A model generated the notes under the pieces. It was not told the origin of the DNA, did not search any database, and worked only from the letters and a program-made list of their open reading frames with translations. This document shows, one piece after another, positions 1,368-29,604 of a stretch of DNA of 31,257 bases. The DNA is from a virus. Taxonomy: Duplodnaviria; Caudoviricetes. The position numbers were made by a program, and so were the translations under genes. Every line of letters starts with the position of its first letter. Within the stretch, counting starts at the first letter, position 1. The stretch covers positions 1 to 31,257 of the IMG/VR virus record IMGVR_UViG_3300017721_000436; one strand, 5' to 3'.

Positions 1368-1387
1368 AAGTAGATTAAAAAATTATA

Positions 1388-1400
1388 GTGTAACTATATT
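1388..1400 (+). promoter_or_regulatory. Candidate phage late-promoter motif GTRAYWATA (copy 1)
   Basis: GTGTAACTATA in an intergenic gap; similar words at 10993 and 16961. Confidence 0.4.
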
Positions 1401-1430
1401 ATTATAAATTAATTAATTAAATTAAATCAA

Positions 1431-1697: not shown

Positions 1698-1698
1698 A

Positions 1699-1926: not shown

Positions 1927-2531
1927 TGAAAAGCGTATATGATTTTATCATAAAGCCTGTAGGTAAAGTTTATGATAATTCTATAGACGTAAATGGTAAA
2001 GAGCTTTTATTAAACACAAGCATAGATAAACATAAGTTTGTAAATAATAAAGCTATTGTAGTTTCTACACCACTTGCGTTTGAAACACCTATAGAAGAAG
2101 GAGATGAAATTATAGTTCATCATAATATCTTTAGAAGATATTACAACATGAAAGGTAAAGAAGTTAATAGTAGTAAGTTTTTTAAAAACGATCTTTACTT
2201 TTGTCAAATAGATCAAATATATTTATATAAAAAAATATACAAGTGGCACGCGTTTGCTGATAGATGCTTTGCTATACCACTTAAAAATAATAATGATCTA
2301 GAGCTCGATAAAGAGCAAAAGCTTATTGGTGTATTAAAATACGGTAATAAGTCCTTAGAAGCTAAAGGAATAAACGAGGGAGATACTATAGGGTTTACAC
2401 CTAACAGTGAGTTTGAGTTTATCGTGAATAATCAGCGGCTTTATTGTATGAAATCAAATGATATTGTAATTAAGTATGAGCACCAAGAAAACCAAGTTGA
2501 ATATAATCCAAGCTGGGCAAAAAGCAGTTGA
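1926..2531 (+). CDS. GroES/Cpn10-like co-chaperonin with two tandem GroES-like domains
   Basis: Repeat 1: FIIKP...KAIVVSTP...IEEGDEIIVHH. Repeat 2: DRCFAIP...GVLKYG...INEGDTIGF...EFIVNNQRLYCMKSNDIV, which parallels the GroES C-terminal pattern VKVGDxVxF...EVKIDGEEYLIxRESDIL. Confidence 0.65.
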   Translation: MKSVYDFIIKPVGKVYDNSIDVNGKELLLNTSIDKHKFVNNKAIVVSTPLAFETPIEEGDEIIVHHNIFRRYYNMKGKEVNSSKFFKNDLYFCQIDQIYLYKKIYKWHAFADRCFAIPLKNNNDLELDKEQKLIGVLKYGNKSLEAKGINEGDTIGFTPNSEFEFIVNNQRLYCMKSNDIVIKYEHQENQVEYNPSWAKSS

Positions 2532-2748
2532 GGAATTAATTAAGGTAGCTAAAGAACCTATTGTAGATTCAGATGATGACATCTCGGCTGATCGTTTAAA
2601 GAACGCGGCTGCAACAAAAAAGTTAGCTATATTCGATGCGTTCGAAATACTTAACCGTATTGAAGAAGAAAAAAATATGCTTGAAGATAAATCAGGTAAT
2701 AGCAAACAAAAATCTTTTCAAGGTTTTGCAGAAGGTAGATCTAAGTAA
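2476..2748 (+). CDS. Putative terminase small subunit / helical hypothetical protein
   Basis: 90-aa helical protein directly upstream of, and TAATG-coupled to, the large terminase. The functional call is positional. Confidence 0.5.
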   Translation: MSTKKTKLNIIQAGQKAVEELIKVAKEPIVDSDDDISADRLKNAAATKKLAIFDAFEILNRIEEEKNMLEDKSGNSKQKSFQGFAEGRSK

Positions 2749-10185: not shown

Positions 10186-10991
10186 ATGGCTAAAGAAGCT
10201 AAACAAGCAGAAGAAACAATTGAGGTTGCACCTCAAAAAACAGTTAATGTTAAACCTGAATGGGAAATTAAAGATCGTGTTTATTTTTTAACAGGAAATA
10301 AATCTCCTTTAACACTTAAAATTCCAGGAAGACATACAAGAAAGCATGCATTACTATATTTTGATGAAGAAAGCGGTAAGCAAAGAGAAATTAGATATGC
10401 AACAAATCAAGATTCACCGCTTGTTGATGAACAAAAAGGTGAAGTAACTTTAGGTCACATAATGTTTAGAGACGGTACACTTACTGTTCCTAACATCAAC
10501 AAAACCTACAAAAACTACTTTCAATATATCACCCTTTGAAAGGTAAATTATATCAAGAATACAGCGCTGTTGAAGAAGCTACTGATGAACTTGACCAATT
10601 AGAACTACAAATTGATGCGTTAAACGCGGCTACATCTATGGATATAGATCAAATAGAAGCTATTATGCGTGTAGAAATAGGATCTAAGGTATCTAAGATG
10701 AGTTCTAAGGAGCTTAAACGCGACTTGTTGTTGTTTGCTAAAAAGAATCCTTCTTTATTTGTAGAACTTGCTAATGATGAAAACGTGCAGTTACGTAACG
10801 TAGCAATTGTAGCAACTGAAAATGGTGTAATTGTACTTTCACCAGATCAAAGAAGTTTTACTTGGGGTAGTAATGGAAGAAAACTAATGAACGTACCGTT
10901 TGATGAAAATCCATACTCAGCAATGGCTGCGTGGTTTAAAACCGACGAAGGCGTAGAAGTTTATAAATCAATAGAGAAAAAACTTCTCTAA
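10186..10991 (+). pseudogene. Conserved post-capsid structural gene interrupted by a 1-nt frameshift (ORFs 10186..10539 and 10536..10991 appear to be one gene)
   Basis: At CCT AA CAT (10489-10496) a -1 shift gives ...LTVP(K)HQQNLQKLLSIYHPLKGKLYQEY..., running continuously into the second ORF, whose called start is only a TTG. Could be a sequencing error rather than a true pseudogene. Confidence 0.7.
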
Positions 10992-13029: not shown

Positions 13030-16000
13030 ATGCCAGATATTCAAAATAACTTTGTACAGTCTAAAATGAATCAAGATCTTGACGATCGATTGATTCCACC
13101 AGGCGAGTACAGATCAGCACAAAACGTGGCTATTAGTAGATCACAGGGTGAAGATGTTGGGGCGTTAGAAAATATAGAAGGTAATAATCTTATACAAAAT
13201 TCTGATCTAGCATCAATACCTCATTTAGATGTTATAGGTTATTTTGTAGATCTTTCACAAAATAATATATATTTATTTTTAACAGATTATATAGATACTT
13301 CTAATAACGGTATTAATAATTTTGCGCCTAGCGGAGCTAATTGTTTTATATATAGATTTAATAACAAAGGTAACGGTACTTTTACAAAGTTAGTTGAAGG
13401 TAGTTTTTTAAATTTTTCTAAAAATAGTCCTATATATGGGATTAGTATGATAGAAAATTTGTTATTTTTTACTGATTATAGAAATCAACCTAGAAAAATA
13501 AATGTAACTACAGCCGCTGGTGATAACACATATTATCAAAACGAAGATCAAATATCTGTAGCTAAGTTTGCACCGGTAAATCCTGTTAGGTTTGTAGATA
13601 TGGCTTACAATAATAAGCTTAAATCTACTATATCAAATCCTTCGCAAGAATTTTTACCTGTAAATTTATCTTCTGAAGTAACCAGTAATGGGTCTGTAAC
13701 TAACGTACAATTTACAGCTATAAATGGAACTACTTTTATACCTCAAGTAGGATCTAAAATAGTTAGTCGAAGTAATGCTGATTTAAATGGTAAGATTGTA
13801 TTAGCTTCACCAGCCCCAACAAGCACGCAGGTGTCTGTTACCAACGCGGTAACAGTTAGTAATACAGATGATATTAGTTTTCAACAACCAAATCCTGATT
13901 ATAGTGAAACGTGGGCTGGTGATCCAGATTATGTAAAAGATAGATTTATACGTTTTAGTTATAGGTTTAAATTTGATGATGGTGAATATTCTATAATGGC
14001 ACCTTTTAGTCAATCTTGTTTTGTTCCTAAACAATCTGGTTATTTTATTTTAAACGATGATGACCAAACTTATAGAAGCACAGTGGTTTCATTCATGGAA
14101 AATAACGCTACTCAAGTAGATTTAAACATTGAAATGCCTTATGCTGATATTGAAACTAATTTAAAAGTTACAGAGGTAGAGATATTATACAAAGAATCAG
14201 ACCAAGTGGCTATTAAATCTGTAGAAAGTATACCTATAACAGCTGTTAATACTAACATGGAAGCTAACGCAAATAGTAGTGTATTTACATATAAGTATTT
14301 ATCTACAAAACCATACAAAGTATTACCTGAAGATCAAACAACTAGGGTGTATGACAAGGTTCCTGTTAGAGCTTTTTCTCAAGAAACAAGTAGCAATAGA
14401 ATAATATATGGTAATTACATTGACAAACATAGTTCTCCTGATTCTTTAACTTACGGTTTAGGTTTTGCAAATAAAACTGAAGTAAATACAGGATCTCCAG
14501 ATTCAAATACTATTTATAGTCAAATAGAATATCCTAACCATACACTTAAACAGAATAGAAACTATCAATTAGGTGTTGTATTAGCAGACAGGTATGGAAG
14601 ATCTTCTACTACTATATTGTCTTCTAAAGATGTTTCTGATACTGAATCTTCAACTCAATACGGTAATTCTACTATATACGTGCCTTATATTTCTTGGGGA
14701 GCGCCAAGTTCTTCTACTTCAAGTAATCAAATGTATAAATGGCCTGGGTATAGTTTATCTGTTTTGTTTGACAATAAAGATGGTTTTACATCTGCAATAC
14801 CAACTATTCCTAGTGATGGTTATCCTGGTACTTACGTACCTATTGGAGCTGTTGGTTCTATAGCTATTAACGCTGGCGGTACGGGGTATTCAGACGCTGC
14901 AAACGTAGCCACAACTGGTGGAAGCGGTACTGGTTTAACCGTAGATATTACAACAACAAATGGAGAAATAACTAGCATTTCAATAGCAAAAATGGGTGAA
15001 GGCTACACCGACGGAAATACAATAACTGTAACAGGAGGTAATAACGATGCTACAGTTATAATAACATTAGCAGAACCAAATTTACTTGGTTGGTATTCTT
15101 ACAAATTTGTAGTAAGACAAACAGAGCAAGATTATTATAATGTATATGTGCCTGGTATTTTAAATGGTTATCCTATTCACGGAGGAACATCTCCTTATCC
15201 TACTAATGAAGATGGTGAAACTTCTCATATAGTTTTGATTAATGATAATATAAATAAAGTTCCTAGAGATTTATCTGAAGTAGGGCCTGAACAAAAACAA
15301 TTTAGAAGCAGCGTAAGACTTTTTGGAAGAGTTGAAAACACACAGCCAGTTTCTAGCATAACAAGTTCAGTGCAATACAACATAAACACCACGGCAAGTC
15401 TAACTTCACAAACAATTAGAGAATCTTCTAAAGCGTTTATAGTTTCTACTATAGGTAATGCTGTAGATTTAAATATGGGTTATGCTGAGTTATCTTCAAA
15501 TGGTGTAAAAAACTTTTATCAATTAGATACAAATCCTTTAATTGGTAGAATTTCTACAGATAAAGCAATTGGTGCTTTAAGCACTAATAGCAACGCAACT
15601 ACTATGCTACCTCAACTTGCTGTTTTAGAAACAGAAGCAGTTGAATCAGCTTTAGATATATATTGGGAGACTACAACAGCTGGGCTTGTTGAAGACCTTA
15701 ATTTAGAAGTTAAACAAGCTAGTTCTAGCACAGCGCCTGTAGTGCTATCTTCTACGGTAGCGTCTCAAAACGAAGATTTTCCAATAAACGCAGATGTATT
15801 TGGAAGTGCATCAACTCCTATAAACGTTAAAGATTCATCTGGTACAACAGTTCTTGGTCAAAGTTTTGATATTATATCATCAACAAGAGGTAACGGTAAT
15901 ACTTTGTTAGCAAAAGATGTAAATAATAATAATGTTGCGCCGTTTATTATTATTAACGCGGCTGGGGGTGGATTTTATATACAAACAAATGGATTTTTTA

Positions 16001-16944
16001 ATGTATCTACAGTTGCTGTTGAAAACAATTTTAATATAACTATAAGAGTTACAGATAATACAAATTTAACTTTTGTTGATTTTGTTGTTAGCTGGACTTT
16101 AGGTAACACAATACCTGACTTTGGCACAACACCTGGGCCTTACATTATACAAGGCGCTGGTCCTATAGCTAATTCAGATTATAGCGCTAATGCTGTTAAT
16201 GGTGTAAATTCTTCAGCTTCTTTAACTCAAAGACAACAAGATTTAAGTTTTTCTATAGCAGCTAATACTGTTACTAAAGGTGGGGTAACAGATCCAGCTT
16301 TAAACAACTATGGTTTTAGCATAGCTTCGAGCGGAACTTCTTTATCGCAAAGCAATGCAACGTTGACAACTGCTGATAATGGTGATTATATAATACCTAT
16401 AATAGTAACAGACGCTGGAAGCTTAACAGCTACAACCAATGCAACAGTTACTGTTTCTGTAGGAGTACAAGCTAGTATTGATTTACAAATAAATAACAAT
16501 AGCACTACGTATAGTGGTAATATTGACATGCAGGCAGAATTTATATATAGCGTCAGCGGAACGCAACAAGCAACTCAAACGCTTCAAGCGTCAAGTACTT
16601 CTTCAAATCCTTTTGGTATAGCTATTGGCTTCCTCAATTTACAACCACAACCTACTGGTAGCATAAATGAAACTATAACAATAAATGTTAGAAGACAAAC
16701 AAATGGAGCTCCTACTCAAGTACCTAATCCTGATACTTTAACTATAAGTGTTTTTGCTAATGGCGTGTCAACAACAACACCTTTACTTAAAAATATAATT
16801 CAATCGCCACTGACTATTACAGACGTAGGTACTATTACATTACCTCATTTAGCTCCAAGCACTGGGACTAGTAATATATTAAAAGGAACAGACATAACAA
16901 CTAACAATACTTTAGGTTTTTCAGTTGTAATCGATCTTGCATAA
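13030..16944 (+). CDS. Tail stabilisation/nozzle-like protein, N-terminal part, with inserted and C-terminal Ig/cadherin-like domains
   Basis: Starts NNFVQSKMNQDLDDRLIPPGEYRSAQNV; contains LLFFTDYRNQPRKIN, RFSYRFKFDDGEYS, NRIIYGNY and LDIYWET. C-terminal ~400 aa are Thr/Ser/Asn-rich beta sandwiches (ITIRVTD, IPIIVTDAG). Confidence 0.7.
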   Translation: MPDIQNNFVQSKMNQDLDDRLIPPGEYRSAQNVAISRSQGEDVGALENIEGNNLIQNSDLASIPHLDVIGYFVDLSQNNIYLFLTDYIDTSNNGINNFAPSGANCFIYRFNNKGNGTFTKLVEGSFLNFSKNSPIYGISMIENLLFFTDYRNQPRKINVTTAAGDNTYYQNEDQISVAKFAPVNPVRFVDMAYNNKLKSTISNPSQEFLPVNLSSEVTSNGSVTNVQFTAINGTTFIPQVGSKIVSRSNADLNGKIVLASPAPTSTQVSVTNAVTVSNTDDISFQQPNPDYSETWAGDPDYVKDRFIRFSYRFKFDDGEYSIMAPFSQSCFVPKQSGYFILNDDDQTYRSTVVSFMENNATQVDLNIEMPYADIETNLKVTEVEILYKESDQVAIKSVESIPITAVNTNMEANANSSVFTYKYLSTKPYKVLPEDQTTRVYDKVPVRAFSQETSSNRIIYGNYIDKHSSPDSLTYGLGFANKTEVNTGSPDSNTIYSQIEYPNHTLKQNRNYQLGVVLADRYGRSSTTILSSKDVSDTESSTQYGNSTIYVPYISWGAPSSSTSSNQMYKWPGYSLSVLFDNKDGFTSAIPTIPSDGYPGTYVPIGAVGSIAINAGGTGYSDAANVATTGGSGTGLTVDITTTNGEITSISIAKMGEGYTDGNTITVTGGNNDATVIITLAEPNLLGWYSYKFVVRQTEQDYYNVYVPGILNGYPIHGGTSPYPTNEDGETSHIVLINDNINKVPRDLSEVGPEQKQFRSSVRLFGRVENTQPVSSITSSVQYNINTTASLTSQTIRESSKAFIVSTIGNAVDLNMGYAELSSNGVKNFYQLDTNPLIGRISTDKAIGALSTNSNATTMLPQLAVLETEAVESALDIYWETTTAGLVEDLNLEVKQASSSTAPVVLSSTVASQNEDFPINADVFGSASTPINVKDSSGTTVLGQSFDIISSTRGNGNTLLAKDVNNNNVAPFIIINAAGGGFYIQTNGFFNVSTVAVENNFNITIRVTDNTNLTFVDFVVSWTLGNTIPDFGTTPGPYIIQGAGPIANSDYSANAVNGVNSSASLTQRQQDLSFSIAANTVTKGGVTDPALNNYGFSIASSGTSLSQSNATLTTADNGDYIIPIIVTDAGSLTATTNATVTVSVGVQASIDLQINNNSTTYSGNIDMQAEFIYSVSGTQQATQTLQASSTSSNPFGIAIGFLNLQPQPTGSINETITINVRRQTNGAPTQVPNPDTLTISVFANGVSTTTPLLKNIIQSPLTITDVGTITLPHLAPSTGTSNILKGTDITTNNTLGFSVVIDLA

Positions 16945-16958
16945 AAATAATTAAAAAT

Positions 16959-16974
16959 AAGTGATAATAATATA
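16959..16974 (+). promoter_or_regulatory. Candidate phage late-promoter motif (copy 3)
   Basis: AAGTGATAATAATATA in the 30-nt gap before 16975. Confidence 0.35.
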
Positions 16975-19029
16975 ATGGCCGTAGTAAAAGAAGTATTATA
17001 CTATAATTCGTTCTGGTTAAAGCAGTTACAGCAAGATGATACAAATGTAAACGCAGTGGCTGTTTACCCGGGTGGTTATCCTTATAATGATCTAAATACA
17101 TTTGCTCAGCAAGTAATTGGTATATCTTCTTTTACAGCAGGTATAAATTATGGAAAAAAAAATAATTTAACAACAACATATGGAGGTACTGGAACAGGTT
17201 TAACTGTTGATATTATTTCTGTAAGTGGTGGAAATATAACTAAATTAAAAATAAGAAACAACGGTAGCGGTTATTCAAATGGAGAAACGTTAACAATTGT
17301 ACAAACTATAAATGGTGTAGCTGCTAGCGGCGGTACTATTACGCTTAGAGTATTAAACTCGTCTGGATCAACAGGAGTTTCTTATAATTTTCCTGGTGCT
17401 ATAAGTATAGACAGCAACAAAGGTAATTTTGTTGTTGAAGAGTCTAGAATACGAGGTGGCTACAACAATACACAAGTAGGTTTAGGTGCTAAGGCTTATT
17501 TAGTTGAAGAAGAGTCATTGCAACAAAATAGATTTAATTCACTTATATATTCTGGTATATTTAATTCTAGAACAGGTGTAAATGATACAAATCAGTTTTC
17601 TATAGGCGAAGATATTAGTAAGTCAGCACCGCCAGCGTATGGATCTATACAGAAATTACATGCTGATGACAATAATTTAATTGTACTTCAAGAAAATAAA
17701 ATTAATAGAGCTCTTATAGATAAAGACGCTATATATTCCGCTGAAGGAAATGCTACAATAACTTCTAGGTTTCAAGTTATTGGTGAGCTTGTACCTTACA
17801 ATGGTGACTTTGGAATTAGTAGAAACCCTGAGAGTTTTGCAAGTTATGGTTTTCAAAGATACTTTACAGACAAAGATCGTAATAGTGTTCTTAGATTATC
17901 ACGTGATGGCCTTACTGAAATATCTAGGTATGGTATGCTAGACTTTTTTAGAGATGAGCTTACTAATTTACCAGAAACAACAGATCTTGTAATAGGAGCT
18001 AGACAAAATCCTTATACTATAACATCTGCAATACCACCAGCGCCAGCGGCTAATATTACAACTAAAAATATAACAATAAATGAACCTGCAAGCGTACTTA
18101 GTGATGTTCAAAAAGGCATGCAGTTTCTTATAAACAATCTTGAGCAAACAATAAACAATAAAACTGTTTACGTTACTCAAGTTGTAGGTCAGGTAATAAC
18201 GCTTAGTCAAAGCGTAACAATAGCATTAGGCGATGGTATTACTCTTGTAGCGCCTACGCGTGGTCAAATAGTTGGTGGGTATGATATACATAATAAAAAT
18301 TATATAGTATCTATACAACAAAAACCAACATGGGCTGTACCTCTTGCAGATGATGTAGCTACAGGTGAAAATGCTAATTATAAAACTTTAGCTTTTGATG
18401 AGCTTATAAATGGCTGGACTAGTTTTTATACATACAAACCTACGTTTTCTTTAAGTTTAAAAAATAAATACTACACTGTAAAAGATCAAAATATATATGA
18501 GCATTACGCTGCTTTAACCGGTAATAATAGAGGTACTTTTTATGGTGATTATAAGAAATCTAATATAGAATTTGTATTTAATCAAAACTCTTCTATAGCT
18601 AAAAACTTTTTAACTGTAAATTACGAAGGTGATAACGGTTGGCAGGTAGATAGCTTTATATCAGACGCACAAAGATTTGATTATGGATCTCAAAATCCAT
18701 TAGCTAACTATCAAAGTACTAATGATACAGCTCCAATAGTGCGAAGTTATTACGGTGGTGCTTATGATTCACAAGGTAATACATATGCAACAGCTGTATT
18801 AGTACCACCTGTATTTAGATACGGTTTTGATAGAAAAGAAAACAAATACTATGCGGTATTAAAAAATAATAGCGCGGCTACAAATGGAGAAGTGTTATAC
18901 GGAAATCAAATATCAGGTATTAAAGGTAGATTCGCTACAGTAACAATATCTACAGATGATCTTACTGATATAGGTGGCGCGAAAGAATTATGGTCAGTAG
19001 GATCAAGATATGCAGTATCAAGTTATTAA
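16975..19029 (+). CDS. Tail stabilisation-like protein, C-terminal part
   Basis: VEESRIRGGYN, LIYSGIFNSRTGVNDTNQF, YGSIQKLH, FGISRNPESFA, GWTSFYTYKP and KENKYYA motifs, consistent with a beta-propeller tail nozzle. Confidence 0.7.
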   Translation: MAVVKEVLYYNSFWLKQLQQDDTNVNAVAVYPGGYPYNDLNTFAQQVIGISSFTAGINYGKKNNLTTTYGGTGTGLTVDIISVSGGNITKLKIRNNGSGYSNGETLTIVQTINGVAASGGTITLRVLNSSGSTGVSYNFPGAISIDSNKGNFVVEESRIRGGYNNTQVGLGAKAYLVEEESLQQNRFNSLIYSGIFNSRTGVNDTNQFSIGEDISKSAPPAYGSIQKLHADDNNLIVLQENKINRALIDKDAIYSAEGNATITSRFQVIGELVPYNGDFGISRNPESFASYGFQRYFTDKDRNSVLRLSRDGLTEISRYGMLDFFRDELTNLPETTDLVIGARQNPYTITSAIPPAPAANITTKNITINEPASVLSDVQKGMQFLINNLEQTINNKTVYVTQVVGQVITLSQSVTIALGDGITLVAPTRGQIVGGYDIHNKNYIVSIQQKPTWAVPLADDVATGENANYKTLAFDELINGWTSFYTYKPTFSLSLKNKYYTVKDQNIYEHYAALTGNNRGTFYGDYKKSNIEFVFNQNSSIAKNFLTVNYEGDNGWQVDSFISDAQRFDYGSQNPLANYQSTNDTAPIVRSYYGGAYDSQGNTYATAVLVPPVFRYGFDRKENKYYAVLKNNSAATNGEVLYGNQISGIKGRFATVTISTDDLTDIGGAKELWSVGSRYAVSSY

Positions 19030-19038
19030 ATTAAAAAC

Positions 19039-19833
19039 ATGGAACATTTATTAGAAATATTACATAATCTCTGGTACGGACCAGATGTTAAAGGTCTTAT
19101 AAAAGCTGAACCTATTAGTATGGCTACAGTAGGGCTTATTTCAGCTGGCGCTAGTTTACTTGGCAGTTTATTCGGTGGTGGTGGTAAAAAGAAAAGAGCT
19201 AGACGTGCTGCTCAAGAAAAAAGAAGACTACAAAATAAACTAGAAGGTTTAGAAAACTATAGACAGCCTATCATAAATCCTTATAGTAATGTTACTTCAT
19301 TAGAAGGAATGATAACAGACTTATCTGGTATTGCTTCAAATCCGTATGCTAATTTAAGTGTAGCTACACAAGCGGCTGAGTTCCAAGCCGAAGAAGCAGA
19401 TATAGCTTTAGCAAACACTCTTGATACTCTTATGGCTACTGGCGCTAGCGCTGGTGGCGCAACAGCTCTTGCTAACGCAGCTCTTAGAAGTAAAAGAGGT
19501 ATATCAGCAGATATTGAAAGGCAAGAAGCTCAAAACGAACAATTAAAAGCTCAAGGCCAACAACAGTTAGAAAGATTACAATTAGGCGAAGCACAGCGTG
19601 TTCAAGCAGGACAATTTGGCGAAGCTCAACGATTGCAACAAGCAGATGTTTTAGGTCGTGAGTTTGTTTACGGTCAAAAAGAACGTAGAGAAACAGAGAA
19701 AATGAACAGGATTCAAGCTCAAATAACTGGAGCCGCGCAGCAACAAGCTAATTTAGAATCACAATCAGCATCAATGTTTGGTGGGGCTATGAACACGTTA
19801 GGTGGTTTAGGAATGACAATGATGTCTCAATAA
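19039..19833 (+). CDS. Putative ejection (DNA pilot) protein 1
   Basis: Gly/Ala hydrophobic helix (VGLISAGASLLGSLFGGG), then a basic patch, a Gln/Ala coiled coil and a Gly/Met-rich end. First of three genes of rising size after the tail genes. Confidence 0.6.
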   Translation: MEHLLEILHNLWYGPDVKGLIKAEPISMATVGLISAGASLLGSLFGGGGKKKRARRAAQEKRRLQNKLEGLENYRQPIINPYSNVTSLEGMITDLSGIASNPYANLSVATQAAEFQAEEADIALANTLDTLMATGASAGGATALANAALRSKRGISADIERQEAQNEQLKAQGQQQLERLQLGEAQRVQAGQFGEAQRLQQADVLGREFVYGQKERRETEKMNRIQAQITGAAQQQANLESQSASMFGGAMNTLGGLGMTMMSQ

Positions 19834-19843: not shown

Positions 19844-21313
19844 ATGGCAAACTTACCAAAATTTTCAGGAAAATACACTACAGCCGGAGCTTACGAAAGA
19901 CCTCAAACTGTTTTAGATAAATCAGGTTTTATATATGCTAAAACTTTATCTGACTTAGGACAAGGTTTTAATAAAGCATTGCAAGGTGTTTTTGACAAAC
20001 GCAACGCTGAAGCTTTACAGGCTAGAAAAAACGAAGAAGAAAACTATAAGTTTCAAACACAACAGCAACAACAGTTGATTGGTCAGTTAGCTAAAGCTGG
20101 TATTAACAATGATTCGTTGTACAAACTTGGCTTTGATCTTATTAGCGCTAACTCTAAATTAAGTTTAGATATAAAGCAAGCACAAACACAAGAAGATCGT
20201 ACTAAGTATATGAATCAGCAAGCTAGAGTAATGCGTAAGCTTGGGGAATATCAAGGTCTTATAGCAGGTATACAAGACTCTGCAAGCACATACAGCTCTG
20301 ATGTTATTGAAAATCCTTCTAAAGTTGGTCAACAAGGTGGCGTGGCTACAGTAGGTACTGATCAAAATAAAGATTACAACTTAGGTATGCCGGCGCTTAC
20401 TGGCGCTACTAAAAATGCTAGTTCTGAATATTATCTTGATGAAGATATGAATTTTAGAATAAGACTTACTAGTGATCAAATATCTAAGCAAACAGAAAAA
20501 GGTTACATAGATCAAGACGCTGGTTTGTTTTTATCTTTTGATCCTCTTACAGTACCTAACATAGATAAAGAAATAAGTGACATGCTTTTAGGCGCTAAGA
20601 TTACAGATAAAAATGGTAACATATCTCAAGAATATGTAGATATAAACAATGCTAAATTCGTTACTAATGACCAAGGTACTATGCGTTACGCTGTAGAAGC
20701 AACTAACGTAGCTGGTGCTATGGCTACAACTCAAAACGCTAGAAACGCTATGATAGGTTCTTACTTACAAGATCCTCAGAAAGCTCAGATTATTTATCAG
20801 CAAGTATTTGGTAATAACGAAAAGCTAGAAATAGGTGGCGGTAGCGAGAGCAGTATGTTTACACCTGAATCAGAAAGAAAATTTGTTGCTGCGTTTGATC
20901 AATACTTCGAAGCTCTTATACCTCAAACTAAAATAGGTAAAGCTCAAGCTGTTACAAGAAAACCATCAGGAGGCAAAACAACTATAGATGTTTCTTTTAT
21001 AGATGATTTAAATATACCGGCAGCTGAAACTAAAATTAACGAAGAAGGCGAAGAAGAAAAAAACTTATATGAGCTAGAAAAAGTATTAAGAGGACAAGGT
21101 TTTGTAGTTAAGAAAAATATAGACGTAGGTGACGAAACAGTTATAGACGTAACCTCTTCTATTAAAGGGGCAGACAACACAGTTCAAATAGATAGTTCTA
21201 TGAGTCCTGATGAAGTAAAAGCGTTGTTAAAACAAATACTAACTGGTACACAACCCAGTAGACAAGAAAGAAAAATGACTCCTCAAGAATTAATAGCATT
21301 ATATTCAAATTAA
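19844..21313 (+). CDS. Putative ejection/internal virion protein 2
   Basis: 489 aa, helical Gln-rich N-half; lies between the pilot-like gene and the giant protein. The call is positional. Confidence 0.5.
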   Translation: MANLPKFSGKYTTAGAYERPQTVLDKSGFIYAKTLSDLGQGFNKALQGVFDKRNAEALQARKNEEENYKFQTQQQQQLIGQLAKAGINNDSLYKLGFDLISANSKLSLDIKQAQTQEDRTKYMNQQARVMRKLGEYQGLIAGIQDSASTYSSDVIENPSKVGQQGGVATVGTDQNKDYNLGMPALTGATKNASSEYYLDEDMNFRIRLTSDQISKQTEKGYIDQDAGLFLSFDPLTVPNIDKEISDMLLGAKITDKNGNISQEYVDINNAKFVTNDQGTMRYAVEATNVAGAMATTQNARNAMIGSYLQDPQKAQIIYQQVFGNNEKLEIGGGSESSMFTPESERKFVAAFDQYFEALIPQTKIGKAQAVTRKPSGGKTTIDVSFIDDLNIPAAETKINEEGEEEKNLYELEKVLRGQGFVVKKNIDVGDETVIDVTSSIKGADNTVQIDSSMSPDEVKALLKQILTGTQPSRQERKMTPQELIALYSN

Positions 21314-21315: not shown

Positions 21316-24300
21316 ATGGAAGAATTAGAAGTTATTGTTCAGCGCATGATTGACGCTGGTGAATCAGAGCAAAACATTAAAGCGGTTATACAAGAATATA
21401 ACGCGGGAAAGACAAACGGTGCTGCGGCGAAGGGTGCAACTGCAACACCGAAAACCGGGCAAGCACCCGAGAGTTCGGGCTTAGGTTTGGAAGATTCTTC
21501 TTCGGGATTAAATATTGAAGACTTTTTAGTTACAATAGATGATTTAAAAGACAGTGAAACAAACGTAGTTACGAACTTAAATGATAAATTATCTAGATTA
21601 GGTTTATCTTCTTACACAACAACAAATATAGGATCTACAGATGCTATTAAAATAAGAAAAAGCGGAGATAAAGTAGCTTCTGATTATATGTCTGAAGCTT
21701 TAGATGTTATAGGTTTAGGTGATTTTGTAATGCCTAGTGGTACTTTACTAGATGTTTTTGATTCTTCAAAAGTTGGATCTGATAAATCAGACGAAGAATT
21801 AAAAGAATCTGCAGATAAGCTTAATGAATATATACGCGAAAATGCTAATCTTAGTTACACTAAAGAAGCTAAAAATAAATTTGGTGAAAAATATAAAAAA
21901 GAATTTTTACCATACGTAGAACCTGAAGATTTAAGTAATCAAGAGTTACAATCTAATTATAAAAACAACTTGATTGATAAGTTTAAAAAATTAGAAAGTG
22001 ATACAACAAAAAAACTAGGTGTAAATAAAGAATTTAGAGGACAAGATTTAACTATAACTGAAAAAGATTTTGATAATAAAAAAGACTTTGATCAGTATAA
22101 AAAATACAAAGAAGGTAATCCTCTTGAAAATCTTTCTGAAGATGAACTAGCAATTTACGATGCTGAACGCAAGGCTGAGTATGTAAAACAAAGAGGAGCA
22201 AAATATGCTAGTAATTTAAATAAATCAGATAGACTTGCTTTACAAGCACTACAAGCTGATGATATTGAAAATATAAAACTAAGCGCAGAATCTTTTAAAA
22301 ATTTATCTACTAAGTATGATGGACAATTATCTTCTTATGAAAATTCTTTAGCGGCTTATGAAGCAAACCCTACTTTGTTAACTTTTAAAGCTGCTGAAAA
22401 TAATTTTCAAAACTTATTAGCAACTCAAAACAGTTTACAAGATTTACAAAACAAAGTTGAAAAAGAAAACTTAGAAGAAAAAGCGTCTATAATACCTATA
22501 ACTATACAGGAGTTTAATAAAAACTACAACAGAATGCTTCAGTTAAGAAGTAATTTTAAAAACTTAGGTACTAGTATTTCATATCCATTAGCGCAATTGT
22601 CTATGATGGGTGTTAAAAATTATGATGAAGCTATTGAAGAAACATTTGGTGTTGTTAGTACTTATCAAGAAATGCAAGAAGAATTAGCTTCTTATCAAAC
22701 TACTATAGGTGTAGATGAGATTAAAGATTTAGATGACGCCGGTAGATGGGTTGCTAGTTCTACAACAAACTTGATTCCATCTCTTGCTATGGCAACTACT
22801 GGATCTGCGGCACTTCCTTTGTTTTTTCTATCAGGTGCTGGTGGTTCAGGTTTGGATTTAGCTGTAAGAAAAAAAGATGCAGCAGAAAGAATTATAAGTA
22901 ATAGATCTAGATTAGAATCTGGAGAAGTAACAGATAGCTTTGAAATAAATGCTATTGAACAAGAGATAGCTGAAGATACTAAAACTTTAGGCATAAGTAC
23001 TTTAAGAGGCGTTACTAATCAAGCTCTTGCTGGTATAGCTGAAGTTGCTTTTGAAAGAATAGGTACAATAGCTATATTAAAAGGTATAAAACAAGGTATA
23101 AAAGGTTTACCAAAAGAAACTATAAAAGATGGTTTTAAATTTGCTGGTAAACAACTTTTAAAAGGATCTGCTCAAGAAGGAGCTTCAGAATTAGGTACAA
23201 CGCTGGTTCAAAACTGGGGAGATATATATATACTCGGTGAAGATAAAAATATTTTTGAAGGAGGTTTAGAATCTTTTGCTCAAGGAGCTTTAATGGGTGC
23301 TGGACTTGGTAGTGTAAACGGTTTTAAAGCTGTTAGCCAAGGTATTGCTAGTGAAGCTGCCACTAAAGAAGAAATAAGAAACAGTAAAGAAGTATTAGAC
23401 AAGTTAAGAAAACTTACTGGCCGTCCTGAAATTCAATCTCCTGATGATATAAAGCTAATGAATTTAGATTTATCTCCTGAGATAAAAAGCATGGTAGATC
23501 AATTAACTGGTGAAGCTAATAATGTAACTAATGGCATATTTGAAAGAATAAGCAGTGGTGATTTAAGCTTAGAGCAGTTGTATCAAGTGGGTGAAGTTAA
23601 TAGAAAAATGCGTAAGATAAATAATAGACTTATGAACGCATCTATGTCTAATGCTACGCCTGCACAACTTAAAGCTTTTAAAAGTCAACTTGAATCTGAA
23701 TACAATCAGTTAGCAAATGAAAGAGAAGCTATACTAACTAACGAATCTACATTAGCTAAAAACAGAAAACAAATAAACGAGACGGCTGTAGCTTTTGAAA
23801 GCCAGCAAGGTTACGCGATGTATGATGCTACAATGCGTATGCAAAACGCTACAAATATAGCTAAAGAGTATTCTAATCTTAGTGAAAAATCAAAACAAAT
23901 AGGCTACGATACAGCTCTTGAAGATTTAATAACAGAAGGTGTTGAAGCTCCAACTATAGAGCAAATAAAAGAAAAGGCTTTTGAAAATTACAATGTTGAA
24001 ATAAATACCGAGCTAATAAACAAAGGTGAGAAAAATGCTAAAGCTTTTGCAGAAGCAAATGGATTAAATTTAAATATACAAGTATTTGAAGGTAGTTTAG
24101 AAGAACGTAAAGCCGCTTTAGTAGAAGCTTATCTAGCCAATAGAGCTACTTCTGAATTTGATGGAACTCCTATTAGTCAAGAGCAATTAAATAGTGATTT
24201 AAAATCTTTTCAAAATAAAATAGACAGCGGAGAATTTGAAGCTGTAAACGTAGGTGGTACTATACTTGTTGATAAAACAAACTCTATTAAAAAAGGTAGA

Positions 24301-27300
24301 GTAGGTGTTTTCGCACATGAAGTATTACATAGTTACGCTGCTGAAAAATTTGGTTCTAAAAATGTAAATCAAGCAGGCGAAGCGCTTATAAACTATTTAA
24401 AAAGATATGACCCAGACTTTTCTGCATTGATAGAAGAGCGTATAGGTATATATGAAGGTCGTAGTGATTACTTTGAAGAAGCTATGAATGCTATGTCTGA
24501 TCTGCTAGCAGATGGCGTTGGCGTGACAGAAGCTACAACTGATAGGCTTAGAGGATTTGTAAATAATTTATTAAAACCTCTCGGCAGTAAGTTTCAATTT
24601 AAAACTAATCAAGGTGCTGATGTTCTTAGGTTTATTAAAAACTATAATGCACAAGCTCATTTTGGTAAAGAAGGTACAGCAGAAGATACAGTTGGTGGTG
24701 ATTTTACAGGTGAAAGTTTTTCAAGATCTAGATTAAATGAACTTGCTAGAGATTATAAAAAAGGTAAAATCCAAGCAGATAATGCTGAACTTATAAAACA
24801 ATATAAAAGACTTGCTCTTTCAGGTCCTGGTTTAAACTTTCAAGGATATAAATCAAGAGAGGCTTCGCAACAAGGTTTAAAGGCCATTAAAAAAGAAGAT
24901 GCTGAAAGTTTTGTAATGGAATATCTACCTGGTTTATTACAAAGATATAATCCTGAAAATGCTTTTTCAACTCTTGTTATAGCAAACATAAATCCTAAAC
25001 GTCAAAAGTTTTATCAAGAAGAAATTGGTGATGAAGATGTTACTACTAGAATGTCTGATGAACGCGTTGGTGAAATAGCAGATGAAGGACCAGCTCCTTT
25101 TGAAACTGTGGCTGAAGCTGATGCTGACTTTAAATTAGTTGATAGCATAAAAATAGATGGTCAACCATTATCTAAAGAAACAAAAGATAAAATAAGAGAG
25201 TTTGTTACAGAGCAAACACAAGGTAAAGATCCATTTAATGATAAGTTTAGAAAAGAAGTTTTAAAACCTGATACAGCTTTTGTAAATTTTATTAAGCAAG
25301 AGATATTAGGTGGTAGATCGCTACAAGATTACAGGCAATTTATAAGACAAAACCCTAAGTTTATAAAAGGTTTAGGTATAGGTTCTTTAGTTAGGTTTGA
25401 TACTGGTTTAACTAAGCAAGGTAAGCCTAAGTTGTTTACTGAATTTAATAGAAGACTTACAAAGCAAAAAGAAATAGAAAAGTTTATGATGCAAGGTAGA
25501 GTTGCTTATGTAACTCCACAGCAAATGAAAGCAGGCGCAGACTTATATAATAGACTAAAACCTACTGAAACTCAACTTGCTAATTTTCTTACAGGTGGTA
25601 CAGCTCAAACTGTTAGCAATAGAAAAACAGCTATAGCTAAAGCTATTGCAACTAAGTTTATTGCAGAGGCTACACCTAGCACTCAAGCATTTCAATCAAA
25701 ACCATTAGCTGAACAAGCTAAGATGGCCGAAAAGTTGCAAGTGTCACCTACTGCTAAGTTTGCTATAAGCAAGCGCGCTAAGTTTGACAAAGAAACTCTT
25801 GTAAAAGTTACAGAAGCAAGAGATATAAATAAGGTATTAAAAATATTAGGTTTAGAAAGTGCTAGTATAAATGACGAAAATAGAGCTATAGTTCAACAAG
25901 CTTTTAAAGAGGCCATTGAAAAATATAAATTAACACCAAGAGTGTTTTTAGCAGGAAGTTTTGGTTCTAGTGGAGCTCAAAACACTAGAAGATCTAATGG
26001 TGATGTTTATTATAAGCTTACCAACGGTCAAGAAATAAAAGGTGTGCCTCGTTTAGATTCTGAAGGTAATCAGAAAAGAAATATAAATGGTAAAAAATTA
26101 TTTAATCCACCTACAGCAAAACAAGTACAAGATAAATTTGTAGAAGAAGTTAGTTTAGTTGCCGCTAGAGGTAGATTATATTATGGCGTTAAAGATCCAG
26201 CTTATATAGCTGCTTTAAAATCTGCTGAAAATAATTTAGATAATAAAAAAGAAGATAAAGCTAAAAGAATTCCTATAAAATTAGTTGATACTGCTAAAGG
26301 TAGAGATCAAGCGAAAACAAACATGCTTGTTCTTGAAGATGTTATCAACCAATTAGATAAAGCTGTTAAGGCAGGCATGCCCGTAGAATTAGCCTCTATG
26401 GTTATAGCTCAAGGTTACCAAGCAACAACCGGTCTTATTAAAATAGCAGCGCCATTTAGATATTTTTCTAAAAATCTACAATATGGTACTAGCGCTAAAC
26501 AAAAAACAGGTGATAAATTTAGAGAAGAACACAACCCTCCAGCGTCTGTAGTTGGTGCTTCAATTATATATGGTTTTGCTACTAATAATACTAGCGAAAT
26601 AATAGCTGATATTAAAAAGAATTACTATCAAACTAAACTTTCTAAAGCTGACGATCAAAGATTAGACGATGCTAGGCTAGATGCAACATTACCCACTGGA
26701 ACAACTATAGCAGATAATTCTGCTATTAGATTTATAGAAGCTGGTATTGATCTTAACAGTATTGTTAATTACGAGACAGGTCAAACTATGGCTGAAGAGC
26801 TAGGCGTTGTTTTAAAACCTAGTGATGTTAATCCAGACACTATATTTGATCAAAACGAGATACTTAAAACAGTATTAGATGGTACTATAACTGCTAAAGC
26901 AGGTCAAGATTTATTAAACGAAATAGCTAAGTTAAAATCTGTACCACAAGCATCTAATAAAAATAACAAAGAAAATAGTGTTATTAGTTACAGTATATCA
27001 AAGCCTAATCCAGAGGTGTTAAATAATCTTGACAACGCTGATAAGGCTATGACTAATGCTAGAAATCCTGAGGCACCTGTTAAAAAGATACGTGTGTTTG
27101 ACTTTGATGATACATTAGCTAGATCTAATAGTAAAGTATTGTATGAAATGCCAGACGGTACAGAAGGCTCGTTAAGCGCTACACAGTTTGCTGAAAGAGC
27201 TGGAGAGCTAGAATCTCAAGGAGCTACATTCGATTTTGCAGAGTTTAGTAAAGTAGTTGATGGTAAAAAAGGTCCTGTGTTTAAAGCTATAGAAAACATA

Positions 27301-29604
27301 GTTGAAGCTAGAGGCGCTGAAGACGTATTCATACTTACAGCTCGCCCTGCAGACGCTGCTGGTCCTATTAAAGAATTTATGGATGCGCTTGGGGTTAACT
27401 TACCTATAGAAAATATTGTAGGTTTAGGCAACGGCACGCCGCAAGCTAAAGCTAGATGGATGACGAGTAAAGCTGCTGAAGGTTACAATGACTTTTTCTT
27501 TGTAGATGATGCGTATAAAAATGTTAAAGCAGTACAAGACGCGTTAGATGTATTTGATGTTAAATCTAAAACGCAACAAGCTAAAGTTAAATTTAGTATT
27601 AGTAAAGATTTAGATAAAGGTTTTAATGATATACTGGAAAACAAAACAGGTATAGCATCTGAAAAAGAATATGGTAGAGTAAAAGCTGAAGTAGCTGGAG
27701 CTGGTAAAGGTAGATTAAACTTTTTTATACCACCATCTGCTGAAGACTTTGTAGGTTTGCTATACGCTACGCTTGGCAAGGGTAAGTTAGGTGATCAACA
27801 AATGGCATGGTATAAAACTCATTTGTTAAACCCATACGCTAGAGCTATGAACGAATTATCGTCAGCTCGTATAGCCATGATGAATGATTACAAGCAGCTT
27901 AAAAAACAATTAGAAATAGTACCTAAGGATTTACGCAAGAAAGTTCCAGGCGAACCGTTTACCCGTGAGCAAGCTGTACGCGTGTATATATGGAATAAAC
28001 AAGGTATGTCTATACCTGGAATAAGTAAAAAAGATCAAGCTGATCTTAGCAAGTATGTAAGCGATAATGCTGAACTACAGGTGTTTGCTGATAGACTTAT
28101 TGCTATACAAAAAGGCGATCAGTACGCAGCGCCAAAAGAAGGTTGGCCAGCGGGTACAATAACTACTGATATGCTTGAAGGTTTAAACACTATCAAACGA
28201 GCTAAGTATTTAGAGCAGTGGCAGCAAAATGCAGATGTTATATTCTCTGAAAAGAACCTAAACAAACTTGAAGCTGCTTATGGTAAACCATATCGCTTAG
28301 CTATGGAGAATATGCTGCAGCGTATGAAGTCTGGTCGTAACAGAAACTTCCAAGGCGATACACTTACAGGTAGATTTACAGACTGGGTTACAGGTAGTAT
28401 AGGTACAATAATGTTCTTTAATACAAGATCAGCATTGCTTCAAACTATATCTAGTATTAACTTTGTTAACTTTACTGACAACAATGTGCTAGCAGCGGGT
28501 AAAGCTTTTGCAAACCAGAAACAATTTTGGTCTGACTTTATGACACTTATGAACTCTGACTTCTTGAAAGAACGTCGTGGTGGTTTACGTATTAACGTAA
28601 GTGAAGCTGATATTGCAGACATGGCTAAAAAAGGTGGTGCTAAAGGTGTTATAAATAAACTACTTGAGTTTGGTTTTACGCCAACACAAATAGCAGATAG
28701 CTTTGCTATAGCATCAGGTGGCTCAGCGTTTTACCGTAATCGTATTAAAACTTACAAAAAACAAGGTATGACAGATGCTGAAGCTGAAGCTCAAGCGTTT
28801 GTAGACTTTAGAGAGACAGCAGAAGAGTCGCAACAGTCGTCAAGACCTGATAGAATATCAATGCAACAAGCAGGTCCACTAGGACGTCTTGTATTAGCTT
28901 TTGCTAATACACCGGCTCAGTATGCTAGACTTATAAAGAAAGCTGCTAGCGATCTTAAGAATGGCCGAGGCGATGCTAAGACTAATATAAGTAAAATTAT
29001 ATACTACGGTGTAGCGCAGAACTTATTGTTTAATGCGCTGCAACAAGCTTTGTTTGCGTTTGCGTTTGATGATGATGAGGAAGATACAGAAGAGCAGCAG
29101 AAAAAATATGTTGGTATAGCCAATGGTATGATGGACTCACTGCTAAGAGGTATGGGATTAGGCGGCGCTGTAGTTTCAGTAGGTAAAAATGCTATCATAC
29201 GAATTATAAACGAGATGGAAAAGAAACAGCCTAAGCTTGAAAAAGTAGGTTATGAAATTACTAAACTATCTCCACCTATATCTGCTAAGCTATCGCGCGT
29301 AAATCAAGCTGCAAGATCTTATCAGTGGGATAAAAAAGAAATGAAAGAGAAAGGTTGGAGCTTAGATAATCCAGCTTACTTAGCAAGTGCTAATGTTATA
29401 GCAGCTCTTACTAATATACCACTCGATAGAGCTGTAAAGAAAACCAATAACGTGGTACAAGCTACATCACAAGACTTAGAAACTTGGGAACGCTTAGCAT
29501 TACTAGGTGGTTGGCAAGACTGGGAAATTGGTATTGAAGAAGAAAAACCTGCTAACAAACCTAGCACTAGAAAAACAAGACAAAGAAGAAAACAAAAAAG
29601 ATAA
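21316..29604 (+). CDS. Giant putative ejection / polyvalent protein: zincin peptidase, sigma-70-like segment, unknown domain, HAD phosphatase, helical C-terminal domain
   Basis: 2762 aa. HEVLH at 24316-24330 with downstream EE at 24475-24480. Sigma region-2-like stretch at 24781-25020 and HTH-like stretch at 25561-25650. HAD motifs FDFDDTL (27097-27117), ILTARP, K and FVDD (27499-27510). Gly/Ala-rich hydrophobic helices in the N-terminal third. Confidence 0.8.
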   Translation: MEELEVIVQRMIDAGESEQNIKAVIQEYNAGKTNGAAAKGATATPKTGQAPESSGLGLEDSSSGLNIEDFLVTIDDLKDSETNVVTNLNDKLSRLGLSSYTTTNIGSTDAIKIRKSGDKVASDYMSEALDVIGLGDFVMPSGTLLDVFDSSKVGSDKSDEELKESADKLNEYIRENANLSYTKEAKNKFGEKYKKEFLPYVEPEDLSNQELQSNYKNNLIDKFKKLESDTTKKLGVNKEFRGQDLTITEKDFDNKKDFDQYKKYKEGNPLENLSEDELAIYDAERKAEYVKQRGAKYASNLNKSDRLALQALQADDIENIKLSAESFKNLSTKYDGQLSSYENSLAAYEANPTLLTFKAAENNFQNLLATQNSLQDLQNKVEKENLEEKASIIPITIQEFNKNYNRMLQLRSNFKNLGTSISYPLAQLSMMGVKNYDEAIEETFGVVSTYQEMQEELASYQTTIGVDEIKDLDDAGRWVASSTTNLIPSLAMATTGSAALPLFFLSGAGGSGLDLAVRKKDAAERIISNRSRLESGEVTDSFEINAIEQEIAEDTKTLGISTLRGVTNQALAGIAEVAFERIGTIAILKGIKQGIKGLPKETIKDGFKFAGKQLLKGSAQEGASELGTTLVQNWGDIYILGEDKNIFEGGLESFAQGALMGAGLGSVNGFKAVSQGIASEAATKEEIRNSKEVLDKLRKLTGRPEIQSPDDIKLMNLDLSPEIKSMVDQLTGEANNVTNGIFERISSGDLSLEQLYQVGEVNRKMRKINNRLMNASMSNATPAQLKAFKSQLESEYNQLANEREAILTNESTLAKNRKQINETAVAFESQQGYAMYDATMRMQNATNIAKEYSNLSEKSKQIGYDTALEDLITEGVEAPTIEQIKEKAFENYNVEINTELINKGEKNAKAFAEANGLNLNIQVFEGSLEERKAALVEAYLANRATSEFDGTPISQEQLNSDLKSFQNKIDSGEFEAVNVGGTILVDKTNSIKKGRVGVFAHEVLHSYAAEKFGSKNVNQAGEALINYLKRYDPDFSALIEERIGIYEGRSDYFEEAMNAMSDLLADGVGVTEATTDRLRGFVNNLLKPLGSKFQFKTNQGADVLRFIKNYNAQAHFGKEGTAEDTVGGDFTGESFSRSRLNELARDYKKGKIQADNAELIKQYKRLALSGPGLNFQGYKSREASQQGLKAIKKEDAESFVMEYLPGLLQRYNPENAFSTLVIANINPKRQKFYQEEIGDEDVTTRMSDERVGEIADEGPAPFETVAEADADFKLVDSIKIDGQPLSKETKDKIREFVTEQTQGKDPFNDKFRKEVLKPDTAFVNFIKQEILGGRSLQDYRQFIRQNPKFIKGLGIGSLVRFDTGLTKQGKPKLFTEFNRRLTKQKEIEKFMMQGRVAYVTPQQMKAGADLYNRLKPTETQLANFLTGGTAQTVSNRKTAIAKAIATKFIAEATPSTQAFQSKPLAEQAKMAEKLQVSPTAKFAISKRAKFDKETLVKVTEARDINKVLKILGLESASINDENRAIVQQAFKEAIEKYKLTPRVFLAGSFGSSGAQNTRRSNGDVYYKLTNGQEIKGVPRLDSEGNQKRNINGKKLFNPPTAKQVQDKFVEEVSLVAARGRLYYGVKDPAYIAALKSAENNLDNKKEDKAKRIPIKLVDTAKGRDQAKTNMLVLEDVINQLDKAVKAGMPVELASMVIAQGYQATTGLIKIAAPFRYFSKNLQYGTSAKQKTGDKFREEHNPPASVVGASIIYGFATNNTSEIIADIKKNYYQTKLSKADDQRLDDARLDATLPTGTTIADNSAIRFIEAGIDLNSIVNYETGQTMAEELGVVLKPSDVNPDTIFDQNEILKTVLDGTITAKAGQDLLNEIAKLKSVPQASNKNNKENSVISYSISKPNPEVLNNLDNADKAMTNARNPEAPVKKIRVFDFDDTLARSNSKVLYEMPDGTEGSLSATQFAERAGELESQGATFDFAEFSKVVDGKKGPVFKAIENIVEARGAEDVFILTARPADAAGPIKEFMDALGVNLPIENIVGLGNGTPQAKARWMTSKAAEGYNDFFFVDDAYKNVKAVQDALDVFDVKSKTQQAKVKFSISKDLDKGFNDILENKTGIASEKEYGRVKAEVAGAGKGRLNFFIPPSAEDFVGLLYATLGKGKLGDQQMAWYKTHLLNPYARAMNELSSARIAMMNDYKQLKKQLEIVPKDLRKKVPGEPFTREQAVRVYIWNKQGMSIPGISKKDQADLSKYVSDNAELQVFADRLIAIQKGDQYAAPKEGWPAGTITTDMLEGLNTIKRAKYLEQWQQNADVIFSEKNLNKLEAAYGKPYRLAMENMLQRMKSGRNRNFQGDTLTGRFTDWVTGSIGTIMFFNTRSALLQTISSINFVNFTDNNVLAAGKAFANQKQFWSDFMTLMNSDFLKERRGGLRINVSEADIADMAKKGGAKGVINKLLEFGFTPTQIADSFAIASGGSAFYRNRIKTYKKQGMTDAEAEAQAFVDFRETAEESQQSSRPDRISMQQAGPLGRLVLAFANTPAQYARLIKKAASDLKNGRGDAKTNISKIIYYGVAQNLLFNALQQALFAFAFDDDEEDTEEQQKKYVGIANGMMDSLLRGMGLGGAVVSVGKNAIIRIINEMEKKQPKLEKVGYEITKLSPPISAKLSRVNQAARSYQWDKKEMKEKGWSLDNPAYLASANVIAALTNIPLDRAVKKTNNVVQATSQDLETWERLALLGGWQDWEIGIEEEKPANKPSTRKTRQRRKQKR

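Follow-up and report, generated by a model that had tools for sequence, protein, structure and literature searches.

Conserved junction tags in a giant modular protein of a Bacteroidetes-type podophage as candidate sites for cutting by its zincin-like domain

The window analysed here is the whole of a 31,257-base contig (IMG/VR virus record IMGVR_UViG_3300017721_000436; Duplodnaviria, Caudoviricetes), which carries the virion module of a Bacteroidetes-type podophage. The module ends with a giant open reading frame (ORF) whose 2762-residue product contains a zincin-like metallopeptidase domain and is built from a series of modules that can be exchanged, four of whose joints carry a (K/M/R)-x-S-(K/R) tag (Table 1). 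To judge from its gene position and from the papers cited below, the product is probably an ejection or cargo protein of the polyvalent type, in which the N-terminal region would be the channel or packaging part and the C-terminal domain the structural or ejection part. The tags are probably recognition sites where the protein's own zincin would cut it, a reading built on sequence comparison.

Table 1. Features of the virion module and of the 2762-residue protein
Feature	Position	Residues	Strand	Remarks
GroES-like gene, terminase (phrog_6681), portal (phrog_6547), capsid-like and other structural genes, crAss muzzle-like domain, two mid-sized genes and the giant ORF				virion module
K-F-S in upstream 489-residue protein	19859..19867	6-8	+	may be a fifth site, acted on in trans; the N-terminal leader holding it is optional
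Giant ORF	21316-29604	1-2762	+	cysteine-free; last gene of the virion module
N-terminal region	21316..24015	about 1-900	+	mildly hydrophobic stretches 486-504, 570-588
Zincin-like metallopeptidase domain	24031..24660	about 906-1115	+	HEVLH 1001-1005 (24316-24330); third ligand E1055 (24478-24480)
Junction tag 1 (S-F-S-R)	24712..24732	F1135	+	ESFSRSR; end of post-zincin linker
Sigma-70 region-2-like helical domain	24715..25026	1134-1237	+	begins at tag 1
Flexible linker without tag	25027..25104	1238-1263	+	internal negative control; also a swap point
Alpha/beta domain	25105..25746	about 1264-1477	+	second half of module 2; confident model
Junction tag 2 (K-F-A-I-S-K)	25753..25773	F1482	+	AKFAISK; sharpest swap point
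Module 3	25783..26946	about 1490-1877	+	first half hypervariable, second half conserved; EHxxP at 1738
Junction tag 3 (S-Y-S-I-S-K)	26983..27003	Y1892	+	ISYSISK; least regular of the four tags
HAD phosphatase, T4 Pnkp type	27076..27549	1921-2078	+	DxDxT (DFDDT) at 1929; optional cassette
Junction tag 4 (K-F-S-I-S-K)	27586..27606	F2093	+	VKFSISK
C-terminal domain	27613..29601	about 2100-2762	+	conserved: 79 loci, 45-95% identity

An earlier note on this DNA had singled out four peptides of the pattern (F/Y)-(S/A)-(I/R)-S-(K/R) as candidate cleavage sites at domain boundaries. Translation confirmed all four at the places claimed, and the sizes predicted for the pieces (1135, 347, 410, 201 and 669 residues) agree with the tag positions. 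The pattern matches four times in the whole protein, with 0.028 matches expected from composition and none of 5000 shuffles giving more than two, a statistic that by itself proves little since the pattern was fitted after the fact. As a general consensus it failed, being found at joints 1-4 in 1, 0, 0 and 0 of 74 homologues, and is lineage-specific. What is conserved is (K/M/R)-(F/Y/A/L/E)-S with K or R next, typically K-F-S-K, in which the first Ser is near-invariant; the I-S-K ending is peculiar to this lineage. The register of the tag is set by the closest distinct relative, whose four joints have K-F-S-R, K-F-S-E, S-F-S-K and K-F-S-K. The usual form at site 1 is K-E-S-(K/R), so that Phe is not essential.

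The homologues comprised 79 loci fetched with the C-terminal domain and 66 proteins fetched with residues 940-1480; removal of partial and near-identical proteins left 85 of 136, and 75 including the query were aligned, 10 having been set aside because their zincin or C-terminal anchor was weak. At joints 1-4, (K/M/R/L)-(F/Y/A/L)-S was present in 22, 56, 36 and 49 of the 74 homologues (background window rate 0.07) and (K/M/R)-x-S-(K/R) in 33, 38, 30 and 42 (background 0.037). Matches to (K/M/R)(F/Y)S were concentrated at the joints, 119 of 198 falling within 25 residues of one against 15.4 expected. A motif learnt at site 2 of 55 homologues (Ser in 49/55) placed the query's own sites 1st, 7th, 11th and 13th among about 2750 positions. 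Upstream of the zincin no fixed tag was found: 44 matches to (K/M/R)(F/Y)S are scattered over the N-terminal part, and in a window at residue 905 two of the patterns gave 0/74 and the loosest 6/74.

Enrichment was also found in a held-out set of 131 homologues, those among 149 new proteins that share less than 30% of their 5-mers with any training protein; the denominators are the proteins that match the anchor and are long enough to contain the joint in question. At the first attempt, (K/M/R)(F/Y)S was present at site 2 in 22 of 41 (background 0.03), and site 4 was tagged in 53 of 68 (background 0.06). The counts for site 1, with (K/M/R)-x-S-(K/R) in 69/116 (background 0.07), and for site 3 (17/34, background 0.08) come from second attempts, misplaced first windows having given 6/117 and 0/5: the first site-1 window lay inside the sigma-like domain and the first site-3 anchor matched elsewhere, and once these results were known the zincin end and DxD were taken as the new anchors.

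The tags lie in linkers. Two AlphaFold2 models gave values of the predicted local distance difference test (pLDDT) below 50 at residues 1117-1134, 1238-1263 and 1478-1506 (first model) and at 1467-1489, 1878-1880 and 2087-2099 (second model), with site 3 in coil; site 2 is near the end of both models, so its low pLDDT weighs less. The earlier note had held that its idea would fall if the motifs lay inside folded cores or lacked enrichment and conservation among homologues. In the models all four fall in predicted coil or low-confidence linkers, outside folded cores, and they are enriched and conserved, which gives the arrangement of a self-processing polyprotein, a short conserved motif at module junctions within linkers. 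The linker between the two halves of module 2 (residues 1238-1263) is equally flexible, and each of three patterns was found there in 0 of 74 homologues, which shows that the tag is not a general feature of linkers. The placement given for tag 1, after the zincin and at the start of the sigma-like segment, was borne out; the statement that tags 3 and 4 bracket the HAD domain needs correction, since tag 3 sits 29 residues before the HAD fold and the helix in between is retained in relatives without HAD.

The joints are also the places where modules are exchanged. Motif-blind BLAST alignments showed 14 ends in the 1480-1499 bin, 16 starts near 1880-1920 and 21 starts near 2060-2099. Identity falls from 97-99% before site 2 to 34-36% after it in five of seven very close relatives, rises from 21% to 63% across site 1 in relative P0016, and HAD is absent from 13 of 55 loci. 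A mobile module of 165 residues, a weak DUF6934 match, was matched in 14 proteins and occurs at joint 1 (P0033), at joint 2 (L064, L071, P0034, P0103 and others) and at joint 4 (P0206), at all of which one tag precedes it and another follows. In the other 4 of the 14 it lies elsewhere (L017, P0193, L066, L069), without an evident flanking tag, the L017 and P0193 copies being inside HAD. The idea of a modular cassette system thus held as far as breakpoints coincide with tags and the mobile module is tag-flanked, and has to be narrowed in that not every swap point is tagged.

The coincidence of swap points with tags might mean that DNA recombination left the tags behind, or they might be fortuitous matches in linkers rich in Lys and Ser; in either case they would do nothing at the protein level. 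The motif is indeed short and loosely defined, and its patterns were picked with the training set already in view. The held-out enrichment, the empty control linker and the conserved Ser codons, which are of both TCN and AGY types, speak against this, and it is largely refuted by the comparison of sites within single proteins.

In that comparison, sites were picked by the Ser and the two preceding residues only, and the tail was taken as residues +1 to +3 after the Ser. Within one protein, the site-2 and site-4 tails agreed at 1.25 of 3 positions, against 0.60 under permutation (57 proteins). Tails differ among relatives, with I-S-K in this protein, E-E in L004 and K-L/I-E in L044. In disjoint nearest pairs, a test devised after three-neighbour sign tests, a protein's own site 2/4 match outdid the exchanged combination 12:0 (13 ties), 15:0 (13 ties) and 12:1 (12 ties). 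Synonymous codons at the residues shared by sites 2 and 4 agreed in 69 of 116 cases within genes, against a rate of 0.59 between genes (p 0.41; 36 genes), and the flanks of the two sites were no more alike within genes than between. Since the tails match and the synonymous codons and flanks do not, the match is selected at the protein level. Copying of the tag as DNA, by way of a shared nucleotide site at the junctions, was rejected on the mixed TCN/AGY codons, the lack of within-gene synonymous agreement and the unlike flanks, and an origin of the tags as relics or accidents is very improbable. In-step change at the protein level calls for a reader that varies even among near relatives, and points to one encoded by the phage. 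As a junction code that works at the protein level, in proteins of a class already known, the feature has good support.

The zincin is the best candidate for that reader. Tail sharing with neighbours was 0.99 when the neighbours were chosen by zincin and 0.67 when chosen by C-terminal domain (own 1.25, random 0.60). Zincin similarity predicted the site-2 tail (partial Mantel r 0.17, p 0.003) and the cross-site match (0.15, p 0.008), in permutation tests that do not remove shared ancestry. In two alignments (A1, 31 rows; A2, 50 rows), whose rows were chosen for having HExxH, the sole invariant columns are the H, E, H and E of H1001, E1002, H1005 and E1055. Strands precede the HExxH helix in the AlphaFold2 model, and Peptidase_M78 was matched in 5 of 50 members. 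Among held-out proteins HExxH is present in 128 of 131, a set retrieved by an HExxH profile. A zincin profile search gave 1745 clusters at 50% identity; with the zincin alone as query against viral contigs no locus was confirmed. Prediction of a complex of zincin, Zn and site-2 peptide scored 0.00, which counts neither way. One relative (L081; MW202828.1, 741-12320) has an equivalent protein of 3859 residues with two HExxH motifs.

The following course of events is predicted for cutting by the zincin. The protein would be carried in the virion and pass into the host on ejection; the zincin would bind the tag as an extended strand and cut next to the near-invariant Ser. The three middle pieces, namely the sigma-2-like module, module 3 and the Pnkp-type phosphatase, would be freed as separate early-acting proteins, and the N-terminal region with the zincin, together with the C-terminal domain, would serve packaging and ejection. 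Cutting during or after ejection is favoured, because a sigma-like factor would have to leave the membrane-associated part and because the zincin-bearing protein of phage N4 is packaged whole; timing is the weakest step of the scheme. Recombination at one of the tagged joints would be the way to acquire new cargo, each added module bringing its own site. Consistent with the scheme, two homologous giant proteins that have no zincin also have no tag series.

A number of observations weigh on the other side. In the protein itself Ala occupies the conserved Ser slot at site 2 (K-F-A), and many relatives have no tag at single joints, for example at site 4 in several lineages. BLAST alignments also start at untagged linkers (about 1240-1270 and 1680-1740), and inserts nested in HAD, including a kinase, carry no tag. 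The disjoint-pair tests were weak for site 3 (9:4 and 6:2), and of the three-neighbour sign tests, mostly not significant, 1 of 10 fell under 0.05. The link between zincin and tag is itself weak, neighbouring domains show one as strong or stronger, and for the site-3 and site-4 tails that of the zincin lacks significance. One of the two zincin-less proteins, phi13:2 gp127, by eye seems to carry a cargo-like insert. The literature found for the family reports no cleavage product. The virion RNA polymerase (vRNAP) of N4, with its HExxH domain, is packaged unprocessed (PMC5512222, main text), and an N4 structure paper (PMC13434306), in its available part, describes the polymerase and C-terminal domain as one complex and mentions no cut. 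The equivalent metallopeptidase of phi24B is interpreted by its authors as a peptidoglycan hydrolase (10.64898/2026.04.10.717836).

The first His of the zincin motif is changed in 8 of 85 homologues (7 to Glu, 1 to Gln), and most of those displayed still have tags; should these zincins be inactive, the tag can be maintained without any cutting in cis. In all, HExxH is missing from 9 of the 85: seven have EExxH (L006, L013, L021, L033, L067, P0025 and P0033, seemingly two separate lineages), one QExxH (L054) and one HExxxH (P0052). These variants bring in a different account, in which the tag is read and not cut, as a docking, unfolding or threading signal for the zincin-fold domain or for a portal or ejection protein, which would feed the chain module by module. 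In-step change demands a phage-encoded reader, not catalysis, and the packaging of N4 vRNAP uncut agrees with such a role. The fold matches of the zincin model are weak (zincin-type chains, Z 4.1-4.6) and include non-catalytic zincin-like binding domains and active protease alike. In all nine non-canonical zincins, however, the general-base and third-ligand Glu residues and the later His are retained, and seven of the eight first-ligand changes are to Glu, which is itself a metal ligand. The long untagged linker inside module 2 likewise fits the release of whole units better than threading domain by domain. A tag that is read without being cut is considered unlikely.

Outside the giant ORF, a K-F-S tag occurs at the start of the 489-residue protein encoded just upstream (19844-19880), where a short leader ending in K-F-S is followed by a conserved G-A-Y-E motif at which many relatives begin directly. 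A similar leader was found in 7 of 55 relatives, against a background of 0.007, with a pattern that had been widened after looking at the data. The leader is explained equally well by a zincin that cuts in trans, by a head protease and by a tag that stays uncut. It recalls the capsid-targeting leaders of T4, which are removed by the prohead protease. The tags might be cut by another enzyme, either a head-maturation protease encoded elsewhere in the phage genome and acting inside the capsid, or a host peptidase; the ejection protein gp7 of P22, processed by host oligopeptidase A, is a precedent for host cutting. The contig comprises only 31 kb of an incomplete genome, which leaves room for such a gene and counts against the zincin as the cutting enzyme, and DdrB of P1 is processed before packaging (PMC5512222, main text). 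On the other hand, the scaffold-position and capsid proteins of the window have no tag match, and no protease family was found in the 16 other window proteins scanned, a tail-fibre chaperone domain aside. In-step variation among close phages is more readily explained by a reader that varies and is encoded by the phage than by an enzyme of the host, and the absence of a tag series from the zincin-less homologues (two proteins only) points in the same direction. Cutting by a second enzyme is regarded as quite improbable, and self-cutting by the zincin is retained as the probable account.

The concept of zincin self-processing is already published. Iyer et al. 2017 (PMC5512222) proposed that autoproteolysis by metallopeptidase (MPTase) domains releases the domains of phage polyvalent proteins, and drew the analogy to polyproteins made by RNA viruses of eukaryotes. 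With polyvalent proteins as described there, the present protein shares its giant multi-domain build, the terminase-portal module as genomic setting, HExxH with a downstream Glu, and unrelated biochemistries in one chain (zincin signature, sigma-2-like fold, HAD phosphatase). It differs in that the main text of that paper gives no site motif, whereas sites are here located and found to co-vary. No Pfam LPD domain was found in this protein; one relative has LPD14 at E 0.0011, below the curated cut-off. Eukaryotic RNA virus polyproteins likewise have an embedded protease, a short conserved junction sequence and several products per ORF; there is no homology, and cleavage is demonstrated there and predicted here.

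Among phages, the giant gene occupies the position of the largest gene in elemoA, phi38:1 and phi13:2, and its N-terminal region is homologous to theirs; the homologues in the elemoA and phi38:1 records are annotated as 'structural protein', by annotation only. The elemoA protein (QLF85284.1, 3694 residues) belongs to a different zincin clade with a different tag and cargo: in elemoA and five further loci, judged by eye, R/K-x-Q stands at the joints and a BLAST breakpoint falls on the tag. The two proteins without zincin or tag series are gp101 of Cellulophaga phage phi38:1 and gp127 of phi13:2. N4 vRNAP is, like the present protein, a giant ejected protein with an internal HExxH domain, but is packaged whole, and no junction tag is reported for it in the sources as available; it is a counter-example to taking cutting by the zincin for granted. 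In the crAss-like phage phi14:2 (10.1101/2020.03.07.982082), gp65-gp67 are cargo genes of a Bacteroidetes podophage with a zincin in gp65, and fused polyprotein forms are described as 'likely cleaved'; the cargo there is a virion RNA polymerase, in contrast to the sigma-2-like module, the domain without assigned family and the phosphatase found here, and the available part of that source names no sites. The crAss muzzle-like domain of a window protein is a further trait shared with crAss-like phages. In the literature covered, from which subscription papers were mostly absent, no junction motif in such giant proteins was found described and the located, co-varying sites were not found in print; nor was virion proteomics of cultured relatives found, PMC7077304 being, as far as its available part goes, without elemo phages.

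Self-cutting by zincins in giant phage ejection proteins was proposed in 2017 and has stayed open, the cited cases being P1 DdrB, which is processed, and N4 vRNAP, which is not. Sites that are located, conserved and co-varying make the proposal testable, and the cultured relative elemoA (Flavobacterium sp. BAL314) offers predicted sites, around residues 1683, 2079 and 2302 of its 3694-residue protein. If the reading is true, the tags mark the cargo units, including the sigma-like module, that these abundant phages inject, and explain the swapping of cassettes. It is tempting to speculate further, with a good deal of reserve, that aquatic Bacteroidetes podophages may run a programmable polyprotein delivery, in which a lineage-specific zincin code co-evolves with its sites, each cassette, sigma-like factor included, carries a matching tag, and the same enzyme trims a neighbouring ejection protein in trans. 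The 1745 zincin clusters would then amount to an extensive natural collection of pairs of protease and site, and cargo boundaries could be read directly from sequence.

As to the putative cargo, the sigma-2-like domain gave 18 of 18 top rows in a fold search (VIA) as sigma-factor or RNA-polymerase entries; the best match (Z 7.1, root-mean-square deviation (rmsd) 3.2, 91 residues aligned) has a weak score, below the tool's caution level. A weak Pfam Sigma70_r2 match was present in 2 of 50 members (E 0.0066), and the ESM Atlas gave a lead at 0.93-0.94. A sigma-like factor delivered with the virion would be interesting in its own right. As to a sigma region-4 helix-turn-helix, residues 1264-1477 were modelled as alpha/beta and had no family or fold match in Pfam and PDB searches, which covered them in the full-model searches and barely in the VIA search. 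The two halves of module 2 (24715-25746) are swapped independently among relatives.

Module 3, searched within a larger model, had no Pfam, PDB or named Atlas match; its EHxxP motif (26527-26541), found in 39 or so of 55 loci, resembles HNH-type nuclease motifs but has no database support. The HAD domain has the DxDxT motif and the HAD Rossmannoid fold of the T4 Pnkp type, with matches to phrog_415 (E 3.3e-5) and to the T4 Pnkp phosphatase (5uj0; Z 11.1, rmsd 2.6, 120 aligned). In two relatives a P-loop kinase lies inside HAD (P0012, 1911-2066; P0132, 1735-1890), giving a kinase-phosphatase pair like polynucleotide kinase; the pairing suggests a cargo function in RNA or DNA end repair. For the C-terminal domain Pfam and PHROG scans were without match, and none of the cultured phages searched matched it. 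For neither AlphaFold2 model did Foldseek find a PDB match at E<=0.001; a BFVD search gave one uncharacterised match only, and profile searches of PDB sequences no useful match.

The host is probably a Bacteroidetes bacterium, because the cultured-phage matches of the terminase (87 records) and capsid (85 records) are all, except one uncultured record, phages of Flavobacterium, Cellulophaga, Tenacibaculum or Maribacter. The 264-residue protein at 19039-19833, conserved in relatives, some of which have an extension of 20-25 residues ahead of it, has an Ala/Gly-rich hydrophobic N-terminal segment followed by a basic stretch and resembles a small membrane-entering ejection protein. At 10186-10991 two overlapping ORFs (117 and 151 residues) match the first and second halves of PHROG families 34748 and 16922; cultured relatives have single homologous genes of about 250-270 residues at this place. 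The arrangement resembles a frameshift or sequencing error. At 13030-19029 phrog_14478 is divided over two genes (1304 and 684 residues), where elemoA has one gene of 1470 residues.

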